Part shown: positions 1,968 through 3,086 of the stretch, piece by piece
Layout of the letters: each line of letters begins with the position of its first letter
How positions within the stretch are numbered: position 1 is the stretch's first letter
Virus record (IMG/VR): IMGVR_UViG_2526164619_000007
Coordinates: 1-13,170 of that record
Length of the DNA: 13,170 nucleotides
From: a virus
Lineage: Duplodnaviria > Heunggongvirae > Uroviricota > Caudoviricetes
Reading direction: 5' to 3' (one strand)
Notes under the pieces: generated by a model
What the model saw: the letters and a program-made list of their open reading frames with translations, nothing else
Told to the model about the DNA's origin: nothing
Database searches by the model: none
Position numbers and translations under genes: made by a program

Positions 1968-2375
1968 TTATTGATGTTTGTTACGTTTACGAGCTTCTAG
2001 TAGCTCGGTGAATAGGCGATTAAAATTCTCAACGCGGGCACGGAGTTCGCTGATTTGTGCTTGCTGCTCTGATTTTGGAAGTGCGCGATACAATCGCAAC
2101 ATCTCCAACTCATCTTCCGATAAGTCTAAGGCGCTGTTGAGTGCAACTGGGGGATCTGGTGTTTTATCCTCGTCACCAAACAGTATCCAGGTTGGTGAAC
2201 ATTGCAATACCTCAGCTAGGCGATGCAAATTTTGCCCGCGCGGGGCTGTATGGTCGCTTTCCCATAGTGAAATTGATGAGCCAGATACGCCAGCAGCTTT
2301 GCTTAAATCGTTTTGACTTAAACCAACCTGTTTGCGTCTTTCTCTAATTCGTTGACCTAAAGTTTTCTCGTTCAT
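1968..2375 (-). CDS. XRE-family helix-turn-helix repressor (RacR-like prophage repressor, no S24 peptidase domain)
   Basis: 135-aa ORF with N-terminal HTH (QNDLSKAAGVSGSSISLWESDHTAP) and coiled-coil-like C-terminus. Divergent from ydaS/ydaT-like genes as in Rac. Confidence 0.75.
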   Translation of the reverse strand: MNEKTLGQRIRERRKQVGLSQNDLSKAAGVSGSSISLWESDHTAPRGQNLHRLAEVLQCSPTWILFGDEDKTPDPPVALNSALDLSEDELEMLRLYRALPKSEQQAQISELRARVENFNRLFTELLEARKRNKHQ

Positions 2376-2452
2376 ATTTAGATATCTTAATAACTCTTGA
2401 TCTGAGATTCCTTGAATGATTGCTTTTAAGAAAACTCAACTTTGGAGGGGCG
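2376..2452. promoter_or_regulatory. Divergent promoter/operator region between repressor and ydaS-like gene
   Basis: 77-bp AT-rich spacer between divergent genes containing the palindrome agatatct (2380-2387). No promoter hexamers could be assigned with confidence. Confidence 0.35.
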
Positions 2453-2680
2453 ATGTTTAAATCAGACGTAATTAATTTTTATGGGACGAAAGCCAAAGTA
2501 GCGAAAGCTGCTGGAGTTGATCCATCTGCTGTTTCTCAATGGGGGAAACTGGTTCCTGAAGGTCGCGCGATGCGCCTACAAGAGGCATCTGGCGGGGAAC
2601 TTCAGTACGACCCCAAAGTTTATGACGAATATCGTAAGGCAAAACGATCTGGGAAGGTGATTCATGAAAATCAGGCATGA
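2453..2680 (+). CDS. ydaS: Cro-like DNA-binding protein, YdaS family
   Basis: 75-aa ORF MFKSDVINFYGTKAKVAKAAGVDPSAVSQWGK... with GGAGG 4 nt upstream of the ATG at 2453. Sits in the position of Rac ydaS. Confidence 0.65.
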   Translation: MFKSDVINFYGTKAKVAKAAGVDPSAVSQWGKLVPEGRAMRLQEASGGELQYDPKVYDEYRKAKRSGKVIHENQA

Positions 2681-3086
2681 GCACATCGAATCAGTGCTGT
2701 TAGCCCTGGCAGCCGAAAAAGGGCAGGCGTGGGTCGCTAACGCAATTACTGAAGAATATCTGCGGCAGGGGGGCGGCGAATTGCCTCTGGTACCAGGCAA
2801 GGACTGGAACAATCAGCAGAATATCTATCACCGTTGGTTGAAAGGTGAAACGAAAGCGCAAAGGGAAAAAATTCAGAAACTGATCCCTGCGGTTCTGGCA
2901 ATTCTTCCGCGTGAGCTGCGTCACCGACTCTGTATCTTCGATACCCTGGAACGCCGTGCATTACTGGCGGCGCAGGAAGCGTTGAGTACGGCAATTGATG
3001 CGCATGATGACGCAGTTCAGGCCGTTTACCGGAAAGCACATTTCAGCGGTGGTGGGTCGTCCGACGATTCTGTCGTTGTGCATTGA
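2664..3086 (+). CDS. ydaT: YdaT-family protein (proposed toxin / cII-like regulator of Rac-type prophages)
   Basis: 140-aa ORF starting MKIRHEHIESV..., overlapping the ydaS-like stop by 17 nt, SD AAGGTGA upstream. N-terminal motif and gene order match Rac ydaT from memory. Confidence 0.7.
   Translation: MKIRHEHIESVLLALAAEKGQAWVANAITEEYLRQGGGELPLVPGKDWNNQQNIYHRWLKGETKAQREKIQKLIPAVLAILPRELRHRLCIFDTLERRALLAAQEALSTAIDAHDDAVQAVYRKAHFSGGGSSDDSVVVH

Follow-up and report, generated by a model that had tools for sequence, protein, structure and literature searches.

The three genes and their recombinant origin

We analyzed a 13,170-nt stretch of caudoviricete DNA (IMG/VR record IMGVR_UViG_2526164619_000007, positions 1 to 13,170; hereafter the window) and focused on positions 1968 to 3086, which hold three open reading frames (ORFs) in a divergent arrangement. 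A 135-aa repressor is encoded on the minus strand (1968..2375), and a 75-aa Cro-like protein (2453..2680) and a 140-aa YdaT protein (2664..3086) are encoded on the plus strand; a 77-bp regulatory region (2376..2452) lies between the two directions. The initial annotation had described this locus as an intact, toxin-like immunity module of the Rac prophage type, with a RacR-like repressor and ydaS/ydaT-like genes. All three ORFs, at these coordinates and in this order, were found in the ORF list and in the sequence, and the divergent repressor/Cro/CII-like immunity architecture was borne out. The mechanical ORF list begins the Cro-like frame at a TTG at 2420. We placed the start at the ATG at 2453, which matches the N-terminus of DicC and follows a Shine–Dalgarno sequence (GGAGG, 2444–2448); the 75-aa product aligns with DicC from end to end. 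The ydaT ORF overlaps the end of the Cro-like gene, including its stop codon, by 17 nt.

The repressor belongs to the DicA family. It scored 238 bits against the NCBIfam DicA model (NF007257, cut-off 101), aligned over residues 1–135 of 135, and it was 56% identical to Escherichia coli K-12 DicA over its whole length (E = 1.5e-50) in pairwise blastp comparisons with K-12 Rac and Qin genes taken from NC_000913. Comparison with K-12 RacR gave no match at E ≤ 10; the proposed RacR homology was thus rejected. The Pfam scan detected a helix-turn-helix (HTH) domain only (HTH_3, residues 10–64) and no Peptidase_S24. The N-terminal domain matched the structures of the P22 repressor C2 (1adr/2r1j, E = 2e-15) and is followed by a short C-terminal region. 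As the initial annotation had pointed out, a repressor without an S24 autoprotease domain is unlikely to undergo RecA-dependent autocleavage, and the same has been stated for DicA (PMC10448788). Exact copies of the repressor protein occur in 12,954 index blocks.

In the K-12 prophage Qin, DicA binds an inverted repeat, Oc, beside the dicC promoter (PMC3441716). DicA keeps dicC and the dicBF operon off and stimulates its own expression (PMC3441716; PMC10448788); loss of this repression turns on dicB/dicF, resulting in toxic filamentation (PMC3441716, PMC10448788). DicA has no RecA-cleavage site and is antagonized by the small antirepressor Rem (PMC10448788).

The Cro-like protein had been taken for a YdaS homolog but fits DicC and P22_Cro. 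It scored 157 bits against the NCBIfam DicC model (NF007282, cut-off 130) and 63.2 bits against Pfam P22_Cro; its score against Pfam YdaS_toxin (22.3 bits) was below the gathering cut-off of 30. Identity to K-12 DicC was 62% over the full length (blastp, E = 2e-35), whereas identity to K-12 YdaS was 35% over 43 aa only.

The third protein kept the family name it had been given. Along its full 140 aa it shares 96.4% identity with K-12 YdaT (blastp), and it scored 44 bits against Pfam YdaT_toxin and was placed in PHROG 163, described as "CII-like transcriptional activator" (E = 1e-36). Its structural relatives in PDB are 3c4r and 8bt1 (E = 9e-6 to the latter). The DNA-binding residues H56, R57, and W58 and the tetramerization residues L107 and A110 (roles from PMC11879457) are retained, and the ratio of nonsynonymous to synonymous substitution rates (dN/dS) relative to K-12 is approximately 0.05. 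The pairwise alignments with the K-12 Rac proteins therefore agreed with the earlier family names for YdaT, and failed to do so for RacR and YdaS. With one name right and two wrong, the module had been mislabeled as Rac-type.

The YdaT proteins of Rac and of CP-933P, a prophage of E. coli O157:H7, are tetrameric, POU-like, CII-analogous factors that bind (A/T)TGATT-N6-AATCAA at the start of ydaT (PMC11879457; PMC9986795); the CP-933P site reads TTGATT-N6-AATCAA (PMC9986795). Bound at the box over its own ATG, YdaT activates a reverse promoter and thereby raises the supply of repressor (PMC11879457; PMC9986795). Overproduced YdaT causes filamentation and death via rcsA (PMC11879457), and PMC11879457 and PMC5700377 report filamentation and death upon ydaT expression. 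In the window, the sequence GTGATT-CATGAA-AATCAG (GTGATTCATGAAAATCAG, 2657..2674, plus strand) has the ydaT ATG in its spacer. By place and sequence it is the counterpart of the footprinted Rac site ATGATTCATGAAAATCAA, with 16 of 18 bases the same (PMC11879457). Its core, TGATT-N6-AATCA (2658–2673), is matched exactly; the chance expectation in the window for a match with up to one mismatch is 0.61.

Two side observations concern YdaT. A second exact copy of the box core, TGATTCGCGTAAATCA, lies at positions 5857–5872, at nt offset 367 of the DUF1627/ydaW gene and within its coding sequence (…LIRVNQ…). The same copy is present in K-12 Rac (locus L001, 4620–4635, in ydaW) and in locus L006 (5087–5102). 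An exact match is expected by chance approximately 0.01 times in 13 kb. The carriers are near-identical alleles and hence represent a single origin and one occurrence; independent conservation of this box was rejected, as it is common only to near-identical DUF1627 alleles. Its role may be that of an internal CII-type promoter site resembling lambda paQ; the 2025 YdaT paper (PMC11879457) makes no mention of it. In addition, contig L020 (SRR066119) has an extra A in the ydaT A-run at about window positions 2841–2844, resulting in a 61-aa truncation. This is either real pseudogenization in the lineage or a homopolymer read error.

We compared the module with two sets of loci that share its proteins. 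Six E. coli loci on complete chromosomes (L003–L008) carry the exact repressor protein. In these, the repressor gene adjoins genes for a 75-aa P22_Cro protein and a longer (173–183 aa) YdaT/YdfX-type protein, with replication genes on one side and DUF1391...DicB-DUF1482-YdfE-Exc-Int on the other, and rem stands beside hok. The exact YdaT protein is listed in 827 index blocks, and eight of its loci were read (L009–L016), which lie on seven complete chromosomes of 4.4–4.7 Mb and one 2.7-Mb contig, all dense in insertion sequences (IS). There, the exact YdaT is paired with another DicA allele and another DicC N-terminus.

The module joins a DicA/DicC type to a Rac-type ydaT through recombination within the 3' half of dicC, which is conserved. 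In DNA comparisons, positions 1616–2673 of the window are approximately 94% identical to L003–L008, and positions 2539–3159/3258 are approximately 99.4% identical to L009–L016. Position-by-position differences bracket the crossover at 2539–2643. Consistently, the N-terminal HTH half of the window DicC is of the L003 immunity type, and its C-terminal tail is of the Shigella/L009 type. The bracketed segment encodes VPEGRAMRLQEASGGELQYDPKVYDEYRK, which is near-identical in every DicC allele, including that of K-12 Qin. Lambdoid phages are usually assembled by exchange at conserved segments between immunity and downstream genes. The exact recombinant DicC protein is rare, being found in 10 contigs that are all ≤8.4 kb long, as expected because draft assemblies break at IS copies. 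The dicC–ydaT junction is also present in one Shigella flexneri and one E. coli chromosome, at loci 93–98% identical to the window, which makes the host of the window Shigella-like.

The crossover segment of dicC (2539–2643) hardly varies as DNA between immunity types that are otherwise divergent (K-12 Qin, L003, and L009). It may also conceal regulatory signals, such as a YdaT-dependent leftward promoter.

Putative operators and early promoters

A repeat search in the divergent regulatory region (2376..2452) yielded three operator-like pseudo-palindromes: O1 (TTTAGATATCTTAA, 2377–2390), O2 (CTGAGATTCCTTGA, 2402–2415), and O3 (TTAAGAAAACTCAA, 2426–2439). A degenerate rightward promoter (plus strand; -35 TTGATC at 2397–2402, -10 TGCTTT at 2421–2426) was located by positional homology, and O3 sits just after its -10 hexamer, where K-12 has the experimentally verified DicA operator Oc. 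On the other side of the repressor gene, the leftward region equivalent to PL/dicBp (1776..1967, minus strand) has a putative promoter (-35 TTGGCC at 1880–1875, -10 TAAATT at 1857–1852) and two more operator-like sites upstream of the ydfA-like gene, OL1 (TTTAGTTTTCTCAT, 1854–1867) and OL2 (ATAAGAAATCTCAA, 1890–1903). The three sites in the divergent region and the two leftward ones share the form TTNAG-N4-CTNAA.

The rightward promoter of the window departs from that of every other DicA-type allele compared (K-12 Qin, the L009 type, the L003 type, and the phages mEp460_ev081 and HannyBb). All of these have a TTGACT -35 hexamer and a TAnnnT -10 hexamer, followed by a palindromic operator. The other loci with the identical repressor and both phages read TTGACT-18-TA(C/G)(T/C)AT and then the perfect palindrome TTGAGAAAACTCAA. 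The window and all six of its sister contigs read TTGATC and TGCTTT, having lost the A at position 2 of the -10 hexamer and two positions of the -35 hexamer. A promoter scanner returned no promoters in window positions 1400–3300. Applied to L003, which has the identical repressor, the same scanner returned TTGACT-18-TACTAT facing the cro-like gene and TTGACC-17-TAAATT facing DUF1391, and it recovered the K-12 dicC promoter (TTGACT-17-TATCTT).

With the phages as an outgroup, six intergenic substitutions were derived in the window lineage. Four of the six fell in the 12 hexamer positions (hypergeometric P = 0.0046), and all four reduce the match to the consensus. A fifth turned the perfect O3 palindrome TTGAGAAAACTCAA into TTAAGAAAACTCAA. 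On the leftward side, the -35 hexamer changed from TTGAC to TTGGC and OL2 acquired two changes, whereas the relatives and phages keep TTGAC and have ATGAGAAAACTCAA at OL2. O1 and OL1 are unchanged; O3 and OL2 each underwent a G-to-A change yielding a P22-like half-site (TTAAG/ATAAG). None of 5,426 complete E. coli genomes had the promoter variant, although 797 of them have the same immunity type (best match 95.9%), and the exact 47-nt variant was absent from species-representative genomes. The concentration of lineage-specific substitutions in promoter hexamers is the only non-trivial observation made at this locus. It also qualifies the earlier description of the module as intact, which stands for the three reading frames and fails for the promoters, changed at conserved hexamer positions compared with all relatives.

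The repressor gene differs from those of the six E. coli loci by 0 nonsynonymous and 6–7 synonymous substitutions. When differences were polarized with the phage outgroup, the window branch carried one derived repressor change and one ambiguous change. Because only one change is clearly derived there, selection on this branch cannot be judged; with one to two substitutions and little power, the purifying selection on the repressor is not assignable to the window lineage.

Rem and the surrounding prophage

A 95-aa ORF 5.5 kb to the right of the module (8540..8827, plus strand) is a Rem homolog, identified by tblastn, with a promoter-like sequence upstream (TTGATT-16-TAGAAT, 8431–8458). Its identity to K-12 Rem was 67.5% by tblastn (66% in the alignment), and its identity to Rem proteins from loci with the identical repressor was 76–80% (80% to L003/L006 over 80 aa). 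The core of the protein is conserved, and the short C-terminal tail is divergent. An identical ORF in contigs L017/L018 is flagged PF27490:Rem; our Pfam scan of the 95-aa ORF gave no Rem match, as the Pfam copy used evidently does not include PF27490. In K-12, Rem derepresses the DicA-controlled promoter dicBp 165-fold (PMC10448788), and the window product is a probable antirepressor of the DicA-family repressor. The LexA box pattern CTG-N10-CAG had only poor matches across the window, none of them near rem or the repressor gene, and the 20-mer LexA consensus with 3 mismatches had no matches in the whole window. LexA-controlled induction was therefore rejected.

The rem leader (8431–8474) contains an invariant 10-bp palindrome, TACTTAAGTA, just downstream of the TAGAAT -10 hexamer. 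The leader is conserved from K-12 Qin (L002) and loci L003, L004, L006, and L007 to the window, and the palindrome could be a candidate operator for the signal that controls Rem.

Leftward of the repressor, the first gene of the operon is a ydfA/ydaF-like DUF1391 gene (1620..1775, minus strand; Pfam DUF1391, 90 bits). Its product is 90% identical to K-12 YdfA and 84% identical to YdaF, and it follows the repressor as in Qin and Rac. Past two small genes, the leftward operon is gone: an IS1 copy (641..1408) replaces the rest of it (dicF, dicB, ydfD, exonuclease, and xis) together with the 5' part of the integrase gene. Intact relatives with the identical repressor carry DicB, DUF1482, YdfE, Exc, and Int at this place. 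This IS1 copy is 100% identical over 768 bp to the IS1 in L009/L012. Neither dicB, ydfD, nor dicF was detected in the window (tblastn/blastn), which means that the genes responsible for toxicity upon DicA derepression in K-12 are gone from it.

The initial annotation had also listed the integrase, Q, and replication genes as disrupted, and all three lesions were recovered. The integrase ORF (1–654) is 5'-truncated, with the N-terminal half gone, and abuts the IS1 copy. The O-like initiator gene is frameshifted (3177–3701 / 3689–3931), and the gene for a DnaB-like helicase is split (3894–4415 and 4289–5323). An IS3-family element of approximately 1250 bp (orfA/orfB), present in one and a half copies (10916–12165, full; 12821–13170, partial), interrupts the Q-like DUF1133 gene with its full copy. 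A second IS1 copy (9623–10389) interrupts ybcO. The host chromosome is IS-rich and of the Escherichia/Shigella type; related loci in Shigella-like chromosomes are flanked by the same IS types. In the O-like gene, the lesion is a 1-nt deletion that shortens an A8 run near 3377–3384 by one A. Sister contigs L017–L019 keep the A8 run and an intact O-like gene of 251 aa; the lesion is either very recent or located at a phase-variable or sequencing-prone site.

Two further genes were noted. A homolog of QueH-type epoxyqueuosine reductase (7221–7907; Pfam QueH, 221 bits) is cargo between the early-right genes and hok/rem and is also present in the sister contigs. The hok-family gene (8135–8290; Pfam HOK_GEF, 76 bits) encodes …RKDLSEVRIR…; we take the conserved Cys of Hok/Gef proteins to lie usually at the Ser of this segment, in which case a Cys-to-Ser change may be inactivating.

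Interpretation and comparison with known systems

In our judgment, the locus is very likely the lysis–lysogeny immunity region of a degraded lambdoid prophage, a recombinant of DicA/DicC with a Rac-type YdaT whose switch is probably largely silenced. This reading draws on direct observations, namely the family identities, the mosaic structure, the conservation of the YdaT-box and key YdaT residues, the presence of rem, and the promoter and operator substitutions with their polarity. The mechanism that we infer from characterized homologs is as follows. Repressor dimers would bind the TTNAG-N4-CTNAA pseudo-palindromes that overlap the rightward (PR/dicCp-like) and leftward (PL/dicBp-like) promoters, and DicC would play the role of Cro. 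The tetrameric CII analog YdaT would occupy the inverted repeat that spans the ydaT start codon and increase transcription leftward through the repressor gene. The prophage would be induced via the Rem-family antirepressor and not via RecA-stimulated autocleavage. In the window lineage, derived substitutions have altered hexamer positions that are otherwise invariant in both early promoters, and the leftward operon is deleted beyond two small genes, so this switch is probably mostly silent. Lethality upon repressor loss, as proposed in the initial annotation, is doubtful because conserved bases are gone from both hexamers of the rightward promoter and dicB/dicF are absent.

Several points weigh against this reading. 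The promoter and operator calls rest on consensus matching and on positional homology to K-12; operator assignment, loss of promoter activity, and regulatory roles are thus predictions from sequence. The motif TTGAG-N4-CTCAA with up to two mismatches occurs six times in the whole window versus 7.15 times expected and hence is not enriched; four of the six sites cluster in the two regulatory regions, which is suggestive for a motif that was derived post hoc from these same regions. The excess of intergenic over synonymous changes was not significant (Fisher p = 0.05–0.14), and we rejected faster intergenic than synonymous evolution on that ground; the positional enrichment in the hexamers is what holds. 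A repressor identical to the common allele could mean that it is still needed, the G-to-A changes in the operators might retune binding and not destroy it, and a weak or activator-dependent rightward promoter could still fire. CII-type promoters are intrinsically poor. The scanner found no YdaT-dependent reverse promoter inside dicC, a result that is therefore uninformative.

If the promoter and operator differences are a working allelic variant, for example one with retuned operator affinity, the locus would be a fully functional, bistable DicA/DicC switch. The unchanged O1 and OL1, the parallel shift of O3 and OL2 to a P22-like half-site, the open frames of the repressor, DicC, YdaT, and Rem, and the fixation of the variant in all six sister contigs are what such a switch would lead one to expect. 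We nonetheless consider it unlikely, given a -10 hexamer (TGCTTT) without the position-2 A that all other alleles keep, the retention of TTGACT and TAnnnT in the other DicA-type alleles, including those of two cultured phages, and the fact that only a rare lineage of this dead prophage has the variant. Less credence still goes to a Rac-type RacR/YdaS/YdaT toxin–repressor module that is held intact because repressor loss would free lethal ydaS/ydaT expression, which we find improbable. The repressor has no similarity to RacR, the Cro-like protein falls under the YdaS family threshold, and the rightward promoter is without the invariant -10 A and two -35 positions. Such a module could call on the near-identity of YdaT to a K-12 protein whose expression, according to PMC11879457 and PMC5700377, filaments and kills cells, and on three ORFs that stay open amid broken neighbors; its third argument, a repressor without nonsynonymous differences from its relatives, meets the difficulty that the purifying selection is not assignable to the window lineage. 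Moreover, ydaT is frameshifted in one sister contig, which may be a read error.

A further alternative is a type II toxin–antitoxin pair of a YdaS-like antitoxin and a YdaT toxin, for which the Pfam names YdaS_toxin and YdaT_toxin would speak; the term "toxin-like module" in the initial annotation follows the same names. These names came from computational prediction, were not supported by later work, and are disputed in the literature: Jobling's letter equates YdaS/YdaT with Cro/CII and states explicitly that they are not toxins (PMC5917428), an equivalence also made in PMC9986795 and PMC11879457. YdaT is a DNA-binding tetramer with a solved homolog and mapped operators, and PHROGs lists it as a CII-like activator. 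We rejected the toxin–antitoxin reading on the literature (PMC5917428) and regard it as extremely unlikely.

Within the preferred reading of a largely silenced immunity region, the silencing may have been selected by the host. Four of the six substitutions hit promoter hexamers while the repressor stayed identical to a widespread allele, which suggests a scenario in which the rightward promoter was silenced to disarm a potentially toxic dicC–ydaT operon and the repressor, perhaps along with Rem, was kept as a stand-alone asset. We put this forward as a tentative idea that is somewhat unlikely. If true, the repressor might, for instance, have been retained because it protects the host from the many phages of this immunity type in circulation. 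With coding sequences kept and promoter hexamers hit, the locus would be a small, testable example of how a host might neutralize a hazardous prophage regulator without deleting it. The main value of the analysis is the correction of an annotation, as the Pfam names YdaS_toxin and YdaT_toxin and the analogy to Rac invite a reading as a toxin–antitoxin system or as a module with lethal repressor loss.

The system is of an already known kind: every component belongs to a described family, and the exact proteins are abundant in public data. The resemblance to K-12 Rac lies in YdaT (96.4%), the YdaT-box over the ydaT ATG, the cI/cro/cII-like gene order, and the DUF1391 gene after the repressor. 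Unlike in Rac, the repressor is unrelated to RacR, Cro is of the DicC type and not YdaS, and the replication genes are O-like and DnaB-like instead of YdaU/YdaV. Because the window Cro is of the DicC type, the reverse promoter PracR4 inside Rac ydaS has no sequence counterpart in the window. The PaaR2-YdaS-YdaT system of CP-933P has a YdaT-family CII equivalent with a tetrameric, POU-like fold, which recognizes TTGATT-N6-AATCAA between or over the cro-like and ydaT genes. Its YdaT is only a distant relative of the window protein (E = 9e-6 to 8bt1), and its paaA2-parE2 toxin–antitoxin genes are absent from the window.

The module shares with P22 immC (C2, Cro, C1) a repressor N-terminal domain matching C2 and a Cro matching P22_Cro, and with both P22 immC and lambda CI/Cro/CII the logic of three operators, putative in the window, set between divergent promoters along with an activator of the CII type. 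It differs from P22 and lambda in that its repressor has no S24 autopeptidase and the role of CII falls to the sequence-unrelated YdaT family. Short, non-cleavable repressors inactivated by small antirepressors are also known from the Gifsy prophages (GfoR/GftR), as summarized in PMC10448788. The Gifsy antirepressors are controlled by LexA, whereas the window yielded no LexA box, either upstream of rem or elsewhere.

K-12 Qin has the same repressor family (both proteins 135 aa, 56% identity) and Cro family (62%), the same divergent layout, and no S24 domain. The order of TTGACT-type -35 hexamer, -10 hexamer, and palindromic operator in Qin is seen in the relatives of the window, and ydfA after the repressor and a Rem homolog next to hok are further common features. 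The differences are an operator of the form TTNAG-N4-CTNAA in the window versus TTGTTAG-N6-CTAACAA in Qin, the absence of dicB/dicF and the degenerate promoter hexamers in the window, and a full Rac-type ydaT after dicC where Qin has ydfX/ydfW remnants. This immunity type is also at work in temperate phages that have been cultured. Two of them, mEp460_ev081 and HannyBb, share with the intact relatives the gene order repressor, P22_Cro, YdaT family, and replication genes, a DUF1391...DicB segment to the other side, and a Rem gene adjacent to Hok, and mEp460 carries dicB and rem-type genes (PMC10448788). Unlike the window prophage, these phages are viable, keep TTGACT/TAGCAT and the perfect O3 palindrome, and have a long (173 aa) YdaT/YdfX-type CII-like protein in place of the 140-aa Rac type. 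Their repressors differ from that of the window at 5 of 135 residues, O1 is identical, and the layout of operators and promoters is the same.

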